DNA of 64,000 nt from a virus. Shown one piece after another: positions 3,035 to 44,778 of this stretch (the first letter of the stretch is position 1; the number at the start of each line of letters is the position of its first letter). The notes beneath the pieces are model-generated. The model ran no database searches and was not told the DNA's origin. It saw only the letters and a program-made list of their open reading frames with translations. The stretch is from the IMG/VR virus record IMGVR_UViG_3300045988_180190. The stretch is one strand, 5' to 3'. Position numbers and translations under genes: made by a program.

Positions 3035-3700
3035 TCATACTTCAATTTTAATCCCATAACTTTTAAAAAAATTTGTACAAGCACATTGAATTTGAGATAT
3101 AACATTTTGAAAATTATGCACATCTCGAAATTTTATGGCAAAATATATGTTTTTGCTTGCTCTGCTAATAACCCAATTGACACATTCCTCCTCAGGATCT
3201 GAATAAACTGCCATTACATAATTAAATTCATGTTTCTTATGAATATTCAGATCCAAAGGGCGTTTAGTATCAAAAGATATTCCCCATTTGGAGATAGCAC
3301 TGTTGTCACATTGCGCGTTAAGCATCGACGCGCAAGTAAATAATTTTCCGAATATGACACTCGTTACATTGGATAATTTACTATAATCATCTTTGCCAAA
3401 TACTTTATTTGATTCAAATTTTAATTTGTGCTGTTTAAAACCCTTGTCGTCAATTACTTCTTGATATACAGTAAATTTTATTCCGAAATATCCGGAATAA
3501 AATTCATGTCCAGGAATTACCATAGACAAGAATTTTTCCCAAGCACACTTCCAACTACTATTTTTATAGTAATCACTAAGCTCCCACTCACTAAAAGTAA
3601 GATCAATACATAACTTCTCGTCATCTTCCTGAATTGGAACGATGGGTATTGTTACAGTATGCTGGAACACATTTATATAGTATTCTGGTGAAAATTTCAT
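3035..3700 (-). CDS. hypothetical protein (221 aa)
   Basis: ATG at 3700-3698 overlaps the TGA of the tmk-like gene (ATGA coupling). Confidence 0.75.
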   Translation of the reverse strand: MKFSPEYYINVFQHTVTIPIVPIQEDDEKLCIDLTFSEWELSDYYKNSSWKCAWEKFLSMVIPGHEFYSGYFGIKFTVYQEVIDDKGFKQHKLKFESNKVFGKDDYSKLSNVTSVIFGKLFTCASMLNAQCDNSAISKWGISFDTKRPLDLNIHKKHEFNYVMAVYSDPEEECVNWVISRASKNIYFAIKFRDVHNFQNVISQIQCACTNFFKSYGIKIEV

Positions 3701-4374
3701 AATAAAATTTTATTTATATAGTTATATACGTTTTCCGCAAGTGCAGTAGGTTCGCTATCTGCGTTCACATAATGCAAATTGCCCAATAAGTTTGGATAAT
3801 AAACTTGCATAAGTTGAATTTGTTCTTCGTATCTTAGGCGCAGCTTAGTAAACCATTGCAGATCCTTTTTATCCATTGCATCAGAAGAATGCAGCGAAGA
3901 TTCTCTTTTAGCTAATCTTTCGATTATAAGATTTGGTTTTAAATCCAGGTAGATTGTGCTGTCAACTTTTAACAATTTAGAAATTGTTGACAACATTAAG
4001 TCAACCAGCTTAGGGAATTTTCCGGGATACTCCTGCGGAATCATCTGATATACACAGCTAGACAGAACAAATCTGTCACACAATATAACAGGAGAAGACG
4101 CATTTTTAATTTCTTGTAGCAAAAAGTCTTCCAGCATTTCCAATCTTGCTGCAGAAAACAACAAGAATGCGCGGAGCTGTTTAAGCTCCGATGCTGAAAA
4201 GTCATTTGTCTTCAACCACTCACGTACAAATTTCCCAATGGGTGTCCCTCCGTAAGGCTCATTTACGCAGAGCGGTCTAAATCCATCTCTAGATTCAAAA
4301 ATATTGCATAAATTATTGATAAGTGTGGTTTTACCACACCCATCGCAAGCTTCAAATACAATAATTTTAGACAT
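3697..4374 (-). CDS. tmk: thymidylate (dTMP) kinase
   Basis: P-loop IVFEACDGCGKTT, then NEPYGGTPIG, LLFSAARLE, CDRFVLSSCVYQ and YLDLKP..RLAKR, in the order and spacing of bacterial Tmk. AAGGAGGA RBS upstream (4380-4387 region). Confidence 0.85.
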   Translation of the reverse strand: MSKIIVFEACDGCGKTTLINNLCNIFESRDGFRPLCVNEPYGGTPIGKFVREWLKTNDFSASELKQLRAFLLFSAARLEMLEDFLLQEIKNASSPVILCDRFVLSSCVYQMIPQEYPGKFPKLVDLMLSTISKLLKVDSTIYLDLKPNLIIERLAKRESSLHSSDAMDKKDLQWFTKLRLRYEEQIQLMQVYYPNLLGNLHYVNADSEPTALAENVYNYINKILL

Positions 4375-4385
4375 AACTATCCTCC

Positions 4386-4607
4386 TTATTGGTTATAATA
4401 ATCGATTCTTGGTTTTTGATAGCACCCAAAGCCGATCGATACCAGACTTCCGTCACATTCGCATTCCCGAATCCTTCGGGATACCGTTGCTCCGGCACAT
4501 ATGATAAAATTTTTGTCGAGGAGATTATTTGATTGGACAACATCAACAAGTACCTCACGTACTTTTTTTGATTTTGCCTGTTTGGATTTTTGTTTCTGTG
4601 TTGACAT
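4386..4607 (-). CDS. hypothetical small basic protein (73 aa)
   Basis: ATG at 4607-4605 with AAAGGAAA RBS. Lys-rich N-terminus and Cys-rich C-half (ECECDG...GFGC). First gene of the leftward unit, at a divergent junction with 4654. Confidence 0.65.
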   Translation of the reverse strand: MSTQKQKSKQAKSKKVREVLVDVVQSNNLLDKNFIICAGATVSRRIRECECDGSLVSIGFGCYQKPRIDYYNQ

Positions 4608-4653
4608 AATGTTTTTCCTTTTTTGTAATTAGATTAATTAATATTTTTTTATT

Positions 4654-4905
4654 ATGCCCTCGAAATCGAAAGCACAACAAAGATTCTTCGGTATGATATA
4701 TGGGGCTAAAAAGCACCATACCGAAGACAAGTTAACTGGCAAAGCTAAAGAAGTTGCTGATAAACTTACCAAGCGACAAACAAAAGACTTTGCGGAAACC
4801 AAAACTTCTGATCTTCCTGAAACGACTCAGGAAACCAAAAAGCAAGAATACAATAGAAAGGTTGCTTCTGCCTTATGGCAAGAATGTATCCGACTATTTT
4901 CTTGA
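4654..4905 (+). CDS. DUF3008-like small protein (83 aa)
   Basis: N-terminus MPSKSKAQQRFFGMIYGAKK...KDFAETKTSDLPE matches my memory of the MPxKSKAQQ...FAxTKxxxLPE pattern of DUF3008 proteins. One of only three plus-strand genes in the window. Confidence 0.6.
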   Translation: MPSKSKAQQRFFGMIYGAKKHHTEDKLTGKAKEVADKLTKRQTKDFAETKTSDLPETTQETKKQEYNRKVASALWQECIRLFS

Positions 4906-4921
4906 CAATGAAGTTAATACT

Positions 4922-4968
4922 AAAAAAAAACAGATAGGGTTGAAGGCTATAGCCTTCAACCCTATCTG
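4922..4968. terminator. very strong palindromic hairpin; factor-independent terminator for the leftward GC-island unit, possibly bidirectional
   Basis: Perfect palindrome cAGATAGGGTTGAAGGCT-AT-AGCCTTCAACCCTATCTg (4931-4968). It is preceded on the plus strand by A9 (4922-4930), which is a T9 run after the hairpin on the minus strand. On the plus strand it is followed by GGGGGTTTAAG, a weak U-tract. Confidence 0.8.
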
Positions 4969-4981
4969 GGGGTTTAAGAAT

Positions 4982-5030
4982 ATAGCCCACTATTATAAGA
5001 CCGCATAATACGGCAATAGTAGTGGGCTAT
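4982..5030 (-). terminator. second hairpin directly after the stop of the 152-aa gene
   Basis: ATAGCCCACTA (4982-4992) pairs with TAGTGGGCTAT (5020-5030), extendable by 3-4 more pairs. It starts 4 nt after the TAA at 5034-5036. Confidence 0.5.
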
Positions 5031-5033
5031 GTT

Positions 5034-5492
5034 TTACTCCAAAGAACCAAACCCAAGTTCTTTGAATACGGCTTCATCATCCACGCACTTTAGTGCTGGA
5101 GTCGAAATCCAACGTGTGATTCCGTTGGATTTTAACTGCTCAATCACCTGCGCGGCGATTCTCAGAGCCCCCTTGCCCTGGGGAAATCCCCCGCTCCAGA
5201 TCTCGCAAAGCTTACCCTTGTGAAACACAAGGGCTTTACTTTTCTCTGGATTTGCGGGTACTGCCTTCAGGCAGTATACATAAATCCCGGCACCGGCGGC
5301 CCTGGGCATTTTTGCCATTAGGACTTCCGCCTTCATAAAGGCGGAGTGGAGTTCCTTGTGGAACACTTCACCTTCAGCCAGGGGGCGTTCTTCCGGAAGG
5401 CTCGAGCCTATGACCCAAGCTCCCCCCATCTGATCGCGAACCGCAACCAGCGTGAGGGTGACAGCCGTTTTGCTTCTAGAGGACTTAGCCAT
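5034..5492 (-). CDS. hypothetical protein (152 aa) in a GC-rich island; weak GNAT-acetyltransferase-like C-terminal signature
   Basis: ATG at 5492-5490 with AAGGAGGA RBS. The C-terminal segment FPQGKGALRIAAQVIEQLKSNGITRWIS...DDEAVFKELGF resembles GNAT motif A plus the xYxKxGF ending, but the motif is imperfect and the protein ends early. Confidence 0.7.
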   Translation of the reverse strand: MAKSSRSKTAVTLTLVAVRDQMGGAWVIGSSLPEERPLAEGEVFHKELHSAFMKAEVLMAKMPRAAGAGIYVYCLKAVPANPEKSKALVFHKGKLCEIWSGGFPQGKGALRIAAQVIEQLKSNGITRWISTPALKCVDDEAVFKELGFGSLE

Positions 5493-39345: not shown

Positions 39346-40872
39346 TTAAAGTCCGAGATATGTGTTAAGAGATATCTTTAGCACATTCAATGAAATTGCA
39401 ACATAGTAATCTCCAGATAGGTTAATTCTATCCGCAAATTGAGTATCCCTCACAGCTTTAATAGATTCTAAATCTACATCTACTAACATTGGACCTATTT
39501 TGCGTTCTTCTATTGATGATCCCTCCTGGGTTTGCTCCAATAAGTAATCACCTAACCTATTTTCTAACTCTTGTAGCAGACTTCTAGTAACATTGCGTCT
39601 CCCGGGATACTCTTTAAATAAATCTTTAACGCCGTAGTTAATATTGTATACAATGTCACGTATATTGTCTTCGTAATAAAGCACTCCATGAGAAGAGTCT
39701 GTAGTTAGCTGATGTCTTACGTAAGGAACTGTGTGATCATCATCTTGAGCAATTATCCATACGCCATTTGCAGCCACGTCATTAAGCTGATTGTCTGTCC
39801 AAGAGGCGTATGCAGCAGGTACTGAGGATATCCAGGAAAGTTCCATTCTTGACATTCCTTGTTGAGGTAGAAGATTAGAGCGCATACAAGCTATACCTGC
39901 AGCTATATACTTATTTGCAAGTTCTACTTCTTTTGTGCTTCCATCTTCTGCGCTCATTAGGTAATATGCTCCTGGGGACCAAACATTTACCACGCCATTA
40001 TATGCCCAAGTATTACTACGCTTTTTTGCATCTTCTCCAGAGTCATCTGTTTTAGCCGTAGAAGCATAGAGCCCTCTCCATCTTTGGATATCCGGCTGTG
40101 AAGCTTCCAGTACATATGACTTCGCGGTATTTAACACGGAAAGCGTATCGGTATCACACCACAAATTCATAAATAAATCCGTTCGTGATAATTTCTTAAA
40201 GGAAGCTGTATAAGCTGCAAGTTCTAACTGTGCTTGTTCATCACTTTGGCTTGTAAAAGAACTGTCAATAGCATCTACGTAGAAACCTTTCCCTTCTCCT
40301 GCCACATATCCTATAGAAGCTGCAAACGCTAAACTATTAAAATTACTATCGGATGGATCTGTGTCAACAAGTCCTAGATATGTTGTGATATCAGAAGTCG
40401 AAGTAATTGGCTGTATAGAAATTGGATTACTTGGATCATTAAAGTTTACATTAAAAGCTTCTTTTGGAACATTAATATAAACGTCTTGGCGAGTTTCCTC
40501 TTCTCCAAGTTTATTTATAGTTAGTCTTATAATTTTATCTGCTCCTTTAGACGCTGTAATCCAATTCTGCACAACTGGCGTACCAGTTGCATCAACGAAT
40601 GCTAATTTACTTTCAGTAACAAACTGTTGTAGGAAATCTGATACTGGTGTGAAATTTGACAACGGTAATATAATAGATTCCTCTTCCCCGATGTCTGCTA
40701 CCGTCAGCATTGTCACGGGAGACATCTGTGAAAAGAAATTCTTTGTAGTAAACGAAGGCTTACACACTCCCACAAGACAGGCTGCATTGCGGTCTGTAGT
40801 ACCATCTGATACGACCTCTCTGTTGTTATAAATCAACATTTGAGGTTTATGTTCTGAATAATTGCTAATCAT
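39346..40872 (-). CDS. tail sheath-like protein (508 aa)
   Basis: A 500-aa ORF immediately upstream of the tube-like gene. The call rests on size and synteny; no motif was verified. Confidence 0.75.
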   Translation of the reverse strand: MISNYSEHKPQMLIYNNREVVSDGTTDRNAACLVGVCKPSFTTKNFFSQMSPVTMLTVADIGEEESIILPLSNFTPVSDFLQQFVTESKLAFVDATGTPVVQNWITASKGADKIIRLTINKLGEEETRQDVYINVPKEAFNVNFNDPSNPISIQPITSTSDITTYLGLVDTDPSDSNFNSLAFAASIGYVAGEGKGFYVDAIDSSFTSQSDEQAQLELAAYTASFKKLSRTDLFMNLWCDTDTLSVLNTAKSYVLEASQPDIQRWRGLYASTAKTDDSGEDAKKRSNTWAYNGVVNVWSPGAYYLMSAEDGSTKEVELANKYIAAGIACMRSNLLPQQGMSRMELSWISSVPAAYASWTDNQLNDVAANGVWIIAQDDDHTVPYVRHQLTTDSSHGVLYYEDNIRDIVYNINYGVKDLFKEYPGRRNVTRSLLQELENRLGDYLLEQTQEGSSIEERKIGPMLVDVDLESIKAVRDTQFADRINLSGDYYVAISLNVLKISLNTYLGL

Positions 40873-40946: not shown

Positions 40947-41657
40947 TCAATGAGGCATAAGCTCAATAGCAAGTTTCCTAAGCCTTGCAGATTCAATTCT
41001 TGTTCTCCAAGCTGCCTCCCAATTTATTTGAATAATAAAATCTGATCTAAATAGCTTTTTATTTTCAGTTGGATTAATTGCTCTAGGAGTGGATATCTTC
41101 AATGGAGAATATTTTTTTAATCTTAGCAGGTAGCACAACTGTTCCGTTAAACCTGTAAAATGTGCGGCACATAACTGTGACATCATGGCACAATCTCCTA
41201 GGGTTTGCGCATAAGAAGAAAATGTGATTGTAGTGGATGCATTTAACCCCATCATAAACCCAGAATTATCTTCCAGCATTCTAGTCTTATTAGCTATAGT
41301 ACCTATATCAGACAAGCTAATATCTCCAACAGAAATAATAATCTTTGGATTTTGTGTACTTCCCAAATATTCTAATTTAGCTGCGTCATCTAAATAATTA
41401 TAATCAGCTGTTATGTCGATAATTGATTTATTTTTACCCTCTGGGTCTAAAATATAATCACTATAGGTATAATCAAATTTGTGAGCAGTATCTTCTAAGT
41501 ATGTTTTAAAATTTTCTTTGTCCGAAAAAAATATTTTAGTAATCATTAAGAAGATACGTCTTAAATTTAAAATATCCAAATTAGGAAAACAACCTAATTC
41601 ATTATTTAATAATTCAAGCTCAAATGCTGATGTTGTTTTATCTTTTGGAGTTCCCAT
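40947..41657 (-). CDS. hypothetical neck/tail-terminator-position protein (236 aa)
   Basis: Start moved from the GTG at 41681 (which lies inside the IS left end) to the ATG at 41657-41655 (MGTPKDK). It is preceded by GGAGAAAGG (41671-41663). Confidence 0.7.
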   Translation of the reverse strand: MGTPKDKTTSAFELELLNNELGCFPNLDILNLRRIFLMITKIFFSDKENFKTYLEDTAHKFDYTYSDYILDPEGKNKSIIDITADYNYLDDAAKLEYLGSTQNPKIIISVGDISLSDIGTIANKTRMLEDNSGFMMGLNASTTITFSSYAQTLGDCAMMSQLCAAHFTGLTEQLCYLLRLKKYSPLKISTPRAINPTENKKLFRSDFIIQINWEAAWRTRIESARLRKLAIELMPH

Positions 41658-41676
41658 AATTACCTTTCTCCGAAAG

Positions 41677-41697
41677 CCCACAAGCTTTAGCTGTGGG
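41677..41697 (+). repeat. IS left-end subterminal hairpin (IP-L)
   Basis: CCCACA-a-GC-TTTA-GC-TGTGGG: 6-bp stem, 1-nt bulge, 2 bp, TTTA loop. Overlaps the tnpA stop codon at 41687-41689. Confidence 0.8.
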
Positions 41698-42139
41698 ATG
41701 ATTTTTGATTAAAATATTTTGATTCATTTTTTTGCTGCTCAATATAAGTTTTTATTGTAGCTTCTCTTAAACACCCGACTGTATCTACATAATATGATCT
41801 AGACCAAAGTGTTGGAAGCTTACGTTTTAATTCTGGAAATTCTGATCTTAAAAATCTTGAGGTGTATCCTTTTATTTGACCGATTATAAATTGTGGTGCA
41901 GACGATGGCTCAGCAGATATAAAGAGATGTACATGATCTGGCATTATTTCTAATGCTTTAATTGTCCAATTCATGGCTTCACATTTTTCTTCAATTAATA
42001 TTTGCAATCTCGTAGAGATTTTATCCGTCAACACAGGTCTTCTAAATTTGGGAGACCATATGAAGTGATAGCTACAATTGAAAACAGCTGTGTTTGAAGT
42101 TTTCCATCTAATTTTTGAAATTTTATTATTGACACTCAT
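41687..42139 (-). CDS. tnpA: IS200/IS605 family Y1 (HUH) transposase TnpA (150 aa)
   Basis: YHFIWSPKFRRPVL, the HUH motif MPDHVHLFIS, and the catalytic-Tyr region LWSRSYYVDTVG. Confidence 0.95.
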   Translation of the reverse strand: MSVNNKISKIRWKTSNTAVFNCSYHFIWSPKFRRPVLTDKISTRLQILIEEKCEAMNWTIKALEIMPDHVHLFISAEPSSAPQFIIGQIKGYTSRFLRSEFPELKRKLPTLWSRSYYVDTVGCLREATIKTYIEQQKNESKYFNQKSSHS

Positions 42140-42174
42140 AGTATTATTTTAATAACTTAATATATAAAATATAA

Positions 42175-43233
42175 ATGATAAAAACTTTTAAAGTCAAACA
42201 TAATCGTGACTTGTCTGTAGAGCTCCGAAAAGCACTGCAAGTCTCAATATTTGCTTTAAAACACAAGTGTACATCTTCAGCCCAAGTTAAACAATTTGGA
42301 TTAAAATCGATAATTTCTAACCAGATAATCAGAAAGATTATTCGTAATAAACGAATAAAGTCTATACATAATGCGAATCTTATCATACCTCAGCAAGGCA
42401 TTACATACAAAAACAACATTGTTAGAATTCCCTGTTTGGACCTAAGTATAGACTTTTTTATTTCTGGCTTTTTAAAAATAAACCAAATCGAACTTAACTC
42501 TGAATATGCTTTTATTAGCTGTGATTTTCCGAGCGAACCTACGAGAGATAGCACTAATTATATAGGTGTGGATTTGAATACAACTGGACATATGGCTGTT
42601 GCTGCAAACCCTCTAACAGGCAAAGTTTGGAAGTTAAATAAGAAATCTAGTTTCACTCGGTCTAAATATAGACAAATAAGAAAAAAATTGTCCAGACAAA
42701 AGAAATTTAAAGTTATTAAAAGATTAAAAAATCGTGAACAACGTATTTGCAAAGACTTAGACCATAAAGTATCCACTTTTTTAGTCACGCTCGCTAAAAC
42801 ACAAAATTGTGGTTTGCGTTTAGAAAATTTAACTAATATTCGTAAAACATCAAAAAATAAATCTAAAGCATTTAAAGCTTCTTTGAACAATTGGTCATTC
42901 TATCAATTTAGAACGATGATAGATTATAAAGCCAAGTTGCTTGGAGTTAAAGTAGAATATATTGATCCGCGTTATACATCTCAAGCTGATAGTAGGACCG
43001 GACATATAGGAATACGCAATGCAAAGACATTCAAATCTGTTGATACCTCAACAGTTGAGCATGCTGATGTTAATGCTGCTTTTAATATTGCATTAAATCA
43101 ATTAAACATAGCTCAATTGCGTGCAGAAAGAGATGCACGCAAAAGCCATAAGGAAAATACTCCTTTAACTGACTTGGCTTTAAAGGCTCCTTCTAATAAA
43201 AGCAAGAAGACCTTAGAACCCAACGCGCTTTAG
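42175..43233 (+). CDS. tnpB: TnpB (IS605 OrfB-type RNA-guided nuclease), compact 352 aa, zinc-ribbon cysteines absent
   Basis: RuvC-I IGVDLN (D133), RuvC-II GLRLENL (E217) and RuvC-III HADVNAAFNI (D298). The PRYTSQ motif is followed by ADSRTGH...FKSVDTSTVEH where CxxC...CxxC is normally found. Confidence 0.9.
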   Translation: MIKTFKVKHNRDLSVELRKALQVSIFALKHKCTSSAQVKQFGLKSIISNQIIRKIIRNKRIKSIHNANLIIPQQGITYKNNIVRIPCLDLSIDFFISGFLKINQIELNSEYAFISCDFPSEPTRDSTNYIGVDLNTTGHMAVAANPLTGKVWKLNKKSSFTRSKYRQIRKKLSRQKKFKVIKRLKNREQRICKDLDHKVSTFLVTLAKTQNCGLRLENLTNIRKTSKNKSKAFKASLNNWSFYQFRTMIDYKAKLLGVKVEYIDPRYTSQADSRTGHIGIRNAKTFKSVDTSTVEHADVNAAFNIALNQLNIAQLRAERDARKSHKENTPLTDLALKAPSNKSKKTLEPNAL

Positions 43234-43270
43234 CCGTTGGAGTATGTCAGTGGTCTAAGCAAGGTTTAAT
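43100..43270 (+). ncRNA. predicted omega (right-end) RNA of TnpB: scaffold over the tnpB 3' end and RE, guide from the flanking phage sequence
   Basis: By analogy with characterised TnpB systems. A perfect 9-bp stem TTGCGTGCA/TGCACGCAA (43117-43142) lies inside the coding sequence, together with the RE hairpin at 43220-43240. The guide would start at 43251 (TGGTCTAAGCAAGGTTTAAT). The 5' boundary is not determinable by eye. Confidence 0.35.
43220..43240 (+). repeat. IS right-end subterminal hairpin (IP-R)
   Basis: CCAACG-c-GC-TTTA-GC-CGTTGG: same architecture as the LE hairpin with a covarying outer stem. Overlaps the tnpB stop codon at 43231-43233. Confidence 0.8.
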
Positions 43271-44182
43271 ATTGGATATATCAAATTTATATTCGGGCTG
43301 ATTCCTAGGAACAAGTCTCATTATCCCATTAAACTTGTACGGAACCTTGCCCATAAAATAAAATTCTTCACTATATCCCTCAAACAAATAACGATCATCC
43401 GTAGTTTTGTTCACAATCAGGTCACCAACTATAAGCTTAGGATAAGAAATACCTGTGATACTTACAATTACTGGATCAGTAGTTCCCTGTCCAGACTGGT
43501 CGTCGATATGCTCATGCTTTATACTGTTTATAACGAGTTTTGTTTTAATAGGGTTACTATACCCTCCCTCATAAAGCTTGCCCAAGGCTACTTCATCTGT
43601 AACAAATCCAAGCTGGTCTCCCCCGAGAATATCAATATTTAAAGATATGTCCTCTTCATTCGGATTTACAACCATACCTCTATTCCCCTTTGGTCTACAT
43701 ATATAAAAATCATTGTAGTCTGCGGACAATAAATCCGACTTAATCATCTGCCTTAGTGTAGCGAATTGCTCGGCACTTAAGGTATTATATATACCAACAG
43801 AAGGAGAAGTATCTATCTCAGTATTTTTACGCCTATCAAATAAAGCACACTTATAATGCCATCTAAAAGTCTGGTTGCGATTTTTAAAATTTATGTCAAC
43901 AGAGGTATGCGAAGAATTGATATTAACGACAGCACTATTTGCGTCTCTATTTAGATAAACTTCTTTGCCGGTGGAAATGTCAGTTATCATTCCTGTTTCT
44001 GGATCTACAGAAACCTCTGTTAGCTTAAACCAATCTGTATATCCATCACGGGATTTGTAAACATTTATACCAAATCTAGTAAAATCATAGTATTCTGGAC
44101 ATAATGTCCATATGATACGGCAAATATTTTTACCGTAAGCTGGTAAAACTTGAATGGACTTAAATGCACATTTACAAGACAT
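43247..44182 (-). CDS. hypothetical head-completion/neck-position protein (311 aa)
   Basis: ATG at 44182-44180. Its TGA stop (43249-43247) falls within the last 4 nt of the predicted IS right end. Confidence 0.75.
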   Translation of the reverse strand: MSCKCAFKSIQVLPAYGKNICRIIWTLCPEYYDFTRFGINVYKSRDGYTDWFKLTEVSVDPETGMITDISTGKEVYLNRDANSAVVNINSSHTSVDINFKNRNQTFRWHYKCALFDRRKNTEIDTSPSVGIYNTLSAEQFATLRQMIKSDLLSADYNDFYICRPKGNRGMVVNPNEEDISLNIDILGGDQLGFVTDEVALGKLYEGGYSNPIKTKLVINSIKHEHIDDQSGQGTTDPVIVSITGISYPKLIVGDLIVNKTTDDRYLFEGYSEEFYFMGKVPYKFNGIMRLVPRNQPEYKFDISNIKPCLDH

Positions 44183-44742: not shown

Positions 44743-44778
44743 AAATAAAATACGCCCAAGGGTATCCCTGGGCGTATT
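44741..44778 (-). terminator. factor-independent terminator after the major capsid gene
   Basis: AATACGCCCA (44749-44758) pairs with TGGGCGTATT (44769-44778), plus inner GGG/CCC pairs. On the minus strand it is followed by TTATTTTT. Confidence 0.8.

Follow-up and report, generated by a model that had tools for sequence, protein, structure and literature searches.

An IS200/IS605-family insertion sequence at a stop/start junction in the late operon of a human-gut phage

The element, its ends and its genes

The viral DNA analyzed here (IMG/VR record IMGVR_UViG_3300045988_180190; 64,000 nucleotides (nt), referred to below as the window) carries its open reading frames (ORFs) of at least 150 amino acids (aa) on the minus strand, with the exception of tnpB and one 150-aa ORF that overlaps a minus-strand gene. 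Between two of the minus-strand genes, encoding proteins of 311 aa and 236 aa, lies a 1,587-bp segment that holds a Y1 transposase gene (tnpA) and the gene of an RNA-guided nuclease homolog (tnpB), flanked by two subterminal hairpins. We conclude with high confidence that this segment is an intact, recently mobile insertion sequence (IS) of the IS200/IS605 family, with ends of the IS608 type and the divergent gene layout of IS605. The features of the locus are as follows.

40947-41657, minus strand: downstream phage gene, 236 aa, directly upstream of the sheath gene; its ATG (41657-41655) lies 6 nt from the insertion point, and homologs start MGTPK
41660-41663, plus strand: TTAC, target and left cleavage site; read from the sequence, it precedes all 7 insertion sites and most family relatives
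41664-43250, plus strand (the top, active strand): the whole insertion sequence, 1,587 bp, delimited by empty sites, BLAST breakpoints and 16 loci of identical size
41664-41672, plus strand: left-end linker CTTTCTCCG, 9 nt, of which the first 2 nt (41664-41665) are hypervariable among copies
41673-41676, plus strand: left guide tetranucleotide AAAG, predicted to recognize TTAC; identical to the IS608 left guide (PMC3201880, PMC5934647) and kept in relatives
41677-41697, plus strand: left subterminal imperfect palindrome CCCACA-a-GC-TTTA-GC-TGTGGG, a predicted TnpA binding hairpin, followed by ATGA; its stems covary in relatives
41687-42139, minus strand: tnpA, Y1 HUH transposase, 150 aa (Pfam Y1_Tnp PF01797, E = 1.8e-38)
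42175-43233, plus strand, antisense to the phage genes: tnpB, RNA-guided nuclease homolog, 352 aa (Pfam Cas12f1-like_TNB, E = 1.8e-17)
43100-43250, plus strand: predicted omega RNA/right-end RNA (reRNA) scaffold-like region from a family covariance model, overlapping the tnpB 3' end and the right end
43216-43219, plus strand: right guide tetranucleotide GAAC, predicted to recognize TCAG; conserved in relatives
43220-43240, plus strand: right subterminal imperfect palindrome CCAACG-c-GC-TTTA-GC-CGTTGG, whose loop holds the tnpB stop codon TAG
43241-43250, plus strand: right-end segment AGTATGTCAG, ending in TCAG
43247-43250, plus strand: TCAG, right cleavage site, ending 10 nt past the hairpin foot on the 3' side; on the gene strand it is CTGA and gives the 311-aa gene its TGA stop
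43247-44182, minus strand: upstream phage gene, 311 aa; the insertion gives it CAC (His) in place of CAG (Gln) as last codon and TGA in place of TAA as stop
43251-43270, plus strand: predicted omega RNA guide segment TGGTCTAAGCAAGGTTTAAT, 16-20 nt of right flank, placed by the ISDra2 paradigm (PMC8612924)

An earlier note on this DNA, all of whose coordinates proved correct when the sequence was re-read, had singled out the two hairpins as lying on the same strand and sharing one architecture with covarying stems. Neither recurs elsewhere in the window: a degenerate pattern for the architecture has two matches in 64 kb, both on the plus strand, and none in 100 shuffles, and the two positions at which the left and right stems differ are both compensated. 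Folded as DNA and compared with shuffled controls, the left end scores z = -3.7 and the right end z = -2.6. Subterminal at both ends and on one strand, in place of terminal inverted repeats, the hairpins have the arrangement that marks the IS200/IS605 family.

The ends also follow the recognition rule of IS608, in which the four bases 5' of each hairpin act as guides, AAAG for the left site TTAC and GAAT for the right site TCAA, and right cleavage falls 10 nt 3' of the hairpin (PMC3201880, PMC5934647). At the sequence level the pairs AAAG-TTAC and GAAC-TCAG both obey this rule, the second being a compensatory change relative to the GAAT/TCAA of IS608, where T pairs with A, and guide and site covary among relatives (AAAA occurs with TTAT in L016, for example). 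The right guide was missing from the earlier note; that GAAC pairs with TCAG as GAAT does with TCAA (PMC5934647) makes the case for IS608-type ends stronger. The label 'IS608-like' used in that note suits only the ends, the gene layout being divergent, as in IS605. The one departure of the ends is on the left, where TTAC and the hairpin are separated by 13 nt; the distance is 19 nt in IS608 (PMC3201880) and ranges from 17 to 19 nt in sister elements. The genes stand head to head across a 35-nt spacer, which is not the co-directional order of the IS608 subgroup, and this divergent layout is a minority in the wider family (8/39).

We considered whether the short left linker marks a crippled end and rejected this, because every mobile copy described below carries the same linker, which is evidently functional. 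As a separate observation, the linker region (41664-41676) can fold into a mini-hairpin, CTTTC-TCC-GAAAG, that would sequester the AAAG guide; its stem is shorter in copies with other tip nucleotides.

Empty sites, other copies and the pattern of insertion

The earlier note had reconstructed an empty site by removing the element, and this reconstruction is borne out by related genomes. The predicted empty junction, GACCAGTAATTATGGGAAC on the gene strand, occurs verbatim in six related contigs (L002, L004, L006 and L131-L133), where the plus strand reads TTAC followed directly by TGGTC, with no target duplication. When the window is compared by BLAST with L001, an IS-less contig of 96% nt identity, the breakpoints are 41663 and 43251. 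Altogether, seven IMG/VR contigs and eight human-gut metagenome contigs encode relatives of the flanking genes, and the element is present in none of them. The empty junction was recovered through protein-anchored loci; an exact search of IMG/VR for the predicted junction gave no match because one flanking base differs in relatives, and an exact search of the same database with the left end of the element gave none either. Besides the occupied and empty forms there is a third junction allele, found in L003, L005, L007, L128-L130 and L135 (homologous to 41658-43251), in which an AT-rich spacer of about 40 nt (TAA ATATCGAACGGGAAATTTAAATATTTAAAATATT ATG) takes the place of the 2-nt spacer and TTAC is absent.

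Comparison within the family gives the same ends. The arrangement TAGAAC-hairpin-AGTATGTCAG is common to more than 50 relatives, found on viral contigs and in archaeal and bacterial genomes, which diverge directly after TCAG and whose left ends consist of TTAC, 13-15 nt, and (G)AAAG-hairpin-ATGA. A covariance model built from 25 relatives, with the window excluded, matches 43100-43250 end to end (78.5 bits, E = 3e-19) and stops exactly at 43250. The boundaries are thus fixed by three independent lines, namely empty sites, family comparison and the other copies described next. The IS-less alleles that the earlier note had proposed to look for were found, as were further copies, in related phages, and none of the outcomes that it had named as fatal (partial absence of the segment in relatives, copies with other ends, hairpins not conserved among copies) was encountered. 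The empty site of the sister element in L008 was also searched for and not found. A search of GenBank phages with the element DNA and both flanking proteins returned a single match, of 58 nt, to a transposase of Geobacillus virus E3.

Copies of exactly 1,587 bp, with 0-29 differences, are held by 16 loci at seven distinct sites, and at every one of these sites the copy is preceded by TTAC, ends in TCAG and lacks a duplicated flank. The copies at the six other TTAC sites, in related human-gut myovirus contigs of about 170 kb, are 98.2-100% identical, which points to recent movement of the element, and the copies in L141 and L146 are identical although they occupy two different sites. At the sites compared, the surrounding phage DNA is far more diverged than the element, with flanks at 68-77% nt identity for L140 and at 42-79% at the protein level for L147 and L148. 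The occupied allele of the window itself appears in four contigs across separate assembly collections, including ENA ERZ28663791 and ERR1110353; the insertion is not an assembly artifact. Placed on the window, with which these diverged relatives are colinear, the site in L148 corresponds to the junction of the 812-aa and 267-aa genes and that in L147 to approximately 4.4-4.65 kb, and the copy in L140 (2484-4076, 99.2% identical) lies 10 nt inside the homolog of the 311-aa gene, at a TTAC whose homologous, unoccupied counterpart in the window is 44172-44175.

Sister elements of the same clade, which is distinguished by a TnpB lacking zinc-ribbon cysteines, occur at further sites in related phages (L008/L009 at 3487-5057, L136, L137 and L138; TnpB 63-68% aa identity). 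The one in L136 is oriented opposite to the phage genes, and in that of L137 tnpA has been lost and the right hairpin is degenerate.

An unexpected feature of the element is the variability of its first two nucleotides. Among copies that are otherwise 98.2-100% identical, the dinucleotide at 41664-41665 is CT, AA, AT or GA, and it is carried through transposition, being shared by L141 and L146; canonical IS608 chemistry does not predict such variation. Carry-over from the right flank of the previous donor was considered and rejected as a general rule, because the identical copies in L141 and L146 have the same tip at two different sites. The same nucleotides contribute to GGAGAAAGG in the window and are hypervariable among copies. 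The earlier suggestion that the IS left end supplies the Shine-Dalgarno sequence of the 236-aa gene is weak, given that most genes in the window have no such motif and that the empty allele has none either. Few genes in the window carry a Shine-Dalgarno motif at all, and its GC content is 37%.

By the IS608 paradigm, TnpA would excise the plus strand as a single-stranded circle and insert it 3' of TTAC without duplication, finding its cleavage sites through the tetranucleotides 5' of the hairpins, AAAG for TTAC and GAAC for TCAG. Excision would leave a donor joint of CCCATAATTAC with TGGTCTAAG (also given as CCCATAATTAC with TGGTCTAAGC) and produce a circle joint of GTATGTCAG with CTTTCTCCG (also given as GGAGTATGTCAG with CTTTCTCCGAAAG). 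The landing site is the G-TAA of the 311-aa gene, that is, the last base of its final codon and its stop, 2 nt before the ATG of the 236-aa gene; on the gene strand TTAC is GTAA and contains the ancestral TAA. As the TCAG end of the element is CTGA on the gene strand, the 311-aa gene keeps a stop at the same position and only its last residue is altered. It now ends on the TGA at 43247-43249 within the element, and the IS-less L001 has Gln as the last residue, in agreement with the Gln-to-His change that the earlier note had read from the window. Judged from their reading frames both flanking genes survive, the 236-aa gene with its own ATG, so that the insertion into a 2-nt stop/start junction leaves both ORFs open, as had been claimed.

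The element may also fit the operon at the level of expression. Its tnpA is co-oriented with the phage late genes and its tnpB is antisense to them, again as previously described, and the predicted guide-RNA scaffold at the 3' end of tnpB shares this antisense orientation. Since tnpA is co-oriented with the operon and the gene strand of the element has no strong terminator (a single terminator-like site with a weak 5-bp stem), the element probably behaves as an extra cistron in the late operon. Late transcripts would read through it, and ribosomes terminating on tnpA, whose stop codon lies inside the left hairpin, would be left 29 nt short of the ATG that begins the 236-aa gene.

The other insertion sites follow a similar pattern. 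Stop/start junctions of co-directional genes account for four of the six characterized sites, and at three of these four TAA is replaced in frame by TGA:

Window site: empty CAG TAA TT ATG, occupied CAC TGA (Gln to His)
L141 site: empty TTG TAA AA GTG, occupied TTC TGA (Leu to Phe)
L148 site: empty AGG TAA AAAT ATG, occupied AGC TGA (Arg to Ser)
L149 site: empty ATGA, with stop and start overlapping; occupied, six codons from the IS in place of the last two

Among the 297 plus-strand TTAC sequences in the window, only four are of the stop-replacement type and 268 lie inside coding sequence, and the probability that three of six sites would be of this type by chance is approximately 4e-5. Because TTAC is the complement of G-TAA and TCAG that of CTGA, insertion at such a site restores an in-frame stop and alters only the last codon. 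The simplest reading is that the recurrence of junctions is best explained by TTAC specificity together with selection against disruptive insertions in a genome that is about 90% coding.

We also weighed whether the lineage is specifically adapted to phage operons, such that the CTGA end, two outward open frames at the left end, an internal ATG and the inverted tnpA were selected as making gene-boundary insertions harmless. The co-orientation of tnpA with the phage genes at all seven sites would be expected on this account, but it is automatic when the TTAC target lies on the antisense strand as the complement of G-TAA. The in-frame stop replacement at three sites is likewise suggestive, yet the TCAG end is common to archaeal and bacterial relatives, so that CTGA is not phage-specific and not in itself a phage adaptation. 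In L140, an ORF beginning at the ATG internal to the element (window 41727-41725) exits in frame by way of the left hairpin and puts a 21-aa leader in the place of MST, and in L147, L148 and L149 the outward frame from the same ATG is also open into the downstream gene. These read-out ORFs in frame with the downstream gene could be taken as adaptive, as could the position of the hypervariable tip nucleotides 6-10 nt upstream of downstream start codons; the read-out may however reflect the preference of gene callers for the longest ORF, and natural starts are retained at most sites. Two further points in favor are the minority status of the divergent layout, although this layout also occurs in cellular genomes (L063, L069 and L070), and the lack of a close clade relative among cellular genomes of 185,579 species, where the best TnpB has 55% aa identity. 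As survivorship in a genome that is 90% coding is enough to account for the site pattern, we consider specific adaptation to phage operons unlikely.

TnpA, TnpB and possible RNA-guided homing

The transposase matches the IS608 TnpA structures 2vhg and 2a6m over its full length (E = 9e-29), and its HUH motif (DHVHL) and catalytic tyrosine (KTYIEQQ) align with those of IS608 TnpA. In TnpB, the RuvC residues D133, E217 and D298 are invariant in a 44-sequence alignment and align to the Cas12f motifs, and an AlphaFold2 (AF2) model (pLDDT 81.5) finds Cas12f (Foldseek E = 2.7e-17) and ISDra2 TnpB (8h1j; E = 3.4e-12). Its zinc ribbon (residues 268-296) has all four cysteines replaced (YTSQADSRTGHIG...FKSVDTSTVEHAD), and these cysteines are absent across the whole clade, comprising the window, L008/L009 and P0023-P0030 (63-99% identity). 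In a scan of 112 zinc-ribbon segments, the window, L008 and L009 were the cysteine-less ones and 108 of the other 109 keep at least four; a literature search on zinc-less TnpB returned nothing relevant. Relative to L008, dN/dS is 0.08 for tnpA and 0.15 for tnpB, and L008 versus L009 gives 0.11, so the zinc-less TnpB clade is under purifying selection. On these comparisons, both TnpA and TnpB look functional.

The scaffold-like region that overlaps the 3' end of tnpB contains a stem, GCGTGCA/TGCACGC, that covaries in the family; an Rfam search gave no meaningful match. In ISDra2, the right-end RNA carries approximately 16 nt of flank as its guide and the transposon-adjacent motif (TAM) is the TnpA target (PMC8612924), and TnpB with right-end RNA and the homing of IS605-family elements have been described (Karvelis 2021, PMC8612924; Meers 2023, PMC10055086). 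If the element in the window behaves as ISDra2 and IS605-family elements do, its complex of TnpB and RNA would cut the IS-less allele at TTAC plus TGGTCTAAGCAAGG, and recombination after the cut would restore the element or carry it into further genomes, those of co-infecting phages among them.

It is possible, though we do not think it probable, that the element persists and spreads mainly in this manner rather than by TnpA transposition, with TnpB cutting IS-less co-infecting relatives and recombination copying the element in, a mode of spread known from the free-standing homing endonucleases of T-even phages. The intact tnpB, with its three RuvC catalytic residues and purifying selection, agrees with this, as does a scaffold region that fits the family model right up to the element end; the lack of zinc-ribbon cysteines does not, and a cleavage role for TnpB is argued by analogy. 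The flanking DNA of IS-less relatives is informative here. In the closest of these, L001 and L134, the 20 nt past the element are perfectly conserved, and TTAC reads TCAC (the stop changing from TAA to TGA), which, where the background divergence is about 4%, is their only difference from the window between -44 and +140 nt relative to the junction. This T-to-C change would block both insertion and TAM recognition, and TTAC is ancestral by parsimony, because a more distant IS-less clade has kept TTAC, with one mismatch at guide position 9. The TCAC of L001 and L134 is therefore suggestive of an escape allele, as a single event noticed post hoc: it lies in a weakly constrained stop codon, and the chance figure of 4/185 is itself post hoc. 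The occupied allele was seen in only four contigs in the metagenome scan, as against eight empty or variant alleles. Also against this reading is the presence of the same element at seven different sites, which homing cannot produce and which therefore requires transposition. RNA-guided homing between co-infecting phages is nevertheless plausible by analogy, and non-restorative homing into co-infecting phages has been proposed (PMC13565253); no demonstration that TnpB guide RNAs mediate it was found in the searched literature.

Several observations weigh against an intact, recently mobile element. In IS608 and the closest sister elements, the left linker has 6 nt more than here. TnpB is without any zinc-ribbon cysteine, which leaves its nuclease competence uncertain. 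The copy in L140 interrupts a coding sequence after nt 10, and hence not every insertion is neutral. No close cellular copy was seen among the 185,579 species. Activity, transcription, translation coupling and TnpB cleavage are deduced from homology, and the viability of the IS-bearing phage solely from the repeated assembly of full-length contigs. Taken furthest, such points would make the insertion a dead relic or an assembly chimera without present activity, in an IS-bearing genome that is defective or a rare variant, and the rarity of the occupied allele among contigs covering the junction, the short linker and the cysteine-less TnpB could be cited for this. The same junctions nonetheless recur in four contigs from separate assembly collections, copies of 98.2-100% identity occupy seven sites in diverged phages, with identical copies at two sites, and both element ORFs are intact and under purifying selection. 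We regard a relic or chimera as highly improbable, and retain the reading of an intact and recently mobile insertion sequence.

A more inclusive scenario can be drawn from these results. In it, large human-gut myoviruses would share a phage-restricted lineage of IS605/IS608 type with a zinc-less TnpB, which would circulate as a selfish cistron compatible with their operons: it would land on G-TAA and supply TGA, transcription and translation would run through tnpA, TnpB would home during co-infection, and relatives would escape through TAM loss by TAA-to-TGA change. We offer this as speculation and think it quite unlikely to hold in full; if true, the phage population would harbor a natural gene drive guided by RNA, together with alleles that resist it.

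Phage context, significance and comparison with known systems

The gene that follows the 236-aa gene (39346-40872, minus strand, 508 aa) is the tail sheath gene, as verified by predicted structure: its AF2 model (pLDDT 83, pTM 0.85) matches the sheath protein 3hxl (Foldseek E = 6e-13) and also the sheaths of phage 812, phiCD508 and a pyocin. The earlier note had placed the element between neck and sheath genes; the sheath stands on this structural match, and 'neck' for the flanking genes is a guess from gene order. Searched against Pfam, PHROGs and PDB sequences, the 236-, 311- and 508-aa genes gave no matches. Ten further neighboring ORFs compared with PHROGs gave none beyond two exceptions, a 343-aa gene upstream with a weak major-head match and a 758-aa ORF with one match to a PHROG of unknown function. 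The lineage is thus almost invisible to Pfam, PHROGs and GenBank phages, its sheath being recognizable by predicted structure only. Related contigs are 164-174 kb long and come from human-gut samples; the carrier is a contractile-tailed human-gut phage of about 170 kb. Most cellular relatives of TnpB are in methanogens. Because the clade is found on phage-like contigs only and no cellular TnpB is close, no donor host can be named.

A second element of this kind was seen nearby. In L001, positions 4074-5430 hold a different, tnpB-only element of about 1,357 bp, at a site that is empty in the window (approximately 44744-44753). Its 402-aa TnpB has HTH_OrfB_IS605, OrfB_IS605 and TNB domains with intact CxxC motifs, its hairpins are ctcaccagctcgtctggtgag and ctcactagcttgtctagtgag, and it inserted just past the terminator of a capsid-like gene. 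Two unrelated IS200/IS605-type elements thus vary in their presence within a single late operon.

Phage-borne elements that carry TnpB have been described before, as has insertion specific for TTAC (PMC8612924, PMC11437467, PMC13565253). The novelty lies in a well-documented natural system, with a junction pattern and candidate drive-and-escape alleles: a clean natural example of probable peel-and-paste into a phage late operon, for which occupied, empty and target-mutated alleles are all available in public human-gut data. Compact genomes can tolerate TTAC-specific elements: with TTAC complementary to G-TAA, the stop codon that an insertion removes is replaced by one from the element end. The system could be used to test TnpB guide-RNA homing between co-infecting phages, and a compact, 352-aa, zinc-less TnpB under purifying selection may interest those who study or engineer such nucleases.

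When the element is set beside known systems, its ends most resemble IS608 (ISHp608) of Helicobacter pylori. Both elements insert 3' of TTAC and duplicate no target DNA, both have AAAG abutting the left hairpin on its 5' side and a right cleavage site that follows the right hairpin by 10 nt, guide and site pair by the same logic in each, and each has a TnpA with HUH motif and tyrosine. The element here differs from IS608 in the spacing of TTAC from the left hairpin (13 nt, against 19 nt), in using TCAG/GAAC rather than TCAA/GAAT, in its zinc-less TnpB, and in being carried by a phage rather than by a bacterial chromosome. In gene layout it differs again: tnpA and tnpB are co-directional and overlapping in IS608, and tnpA is here inverted relative to tnpB. 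The divergent order is that of IS605, also from Helicobacter pylori, which belongs to the same family and uses the same transposition chemistry. IS605 targets TTTAA or TTAAC (PMC13565253), whereas the element here targets TTAC.

Like ISDra2 and other IS605-family elements with TnpB, the element has tnpB beside its right end, a conserved region of predicted structure that overlaps the tnpB 3' end and stops at the boundary, and an expected TAM equal to the TnpA target. Unlike ISDra2, to which its TnpB is linked by fold only, at low sequence identity, it has TTAC in place of TTGAT and no zinc-ribbon cysteines, and its RNA and cleavage activity are predicted. A broader parallel is provided by the free-standing homing endonuclease genes of T-even phages (Seg, Mob) and by IStrons, which are also selfish elements that lie between conserved phage genes, are polymorphic and keep the host genes functional. 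In contrast to these, specificity here would reside in an RNA guide plus TTAC rather than in protein-DNA recognition, and there is no intron or splicing, the harmlessness of the insertion coming instead from its position and its terminal stop codon.

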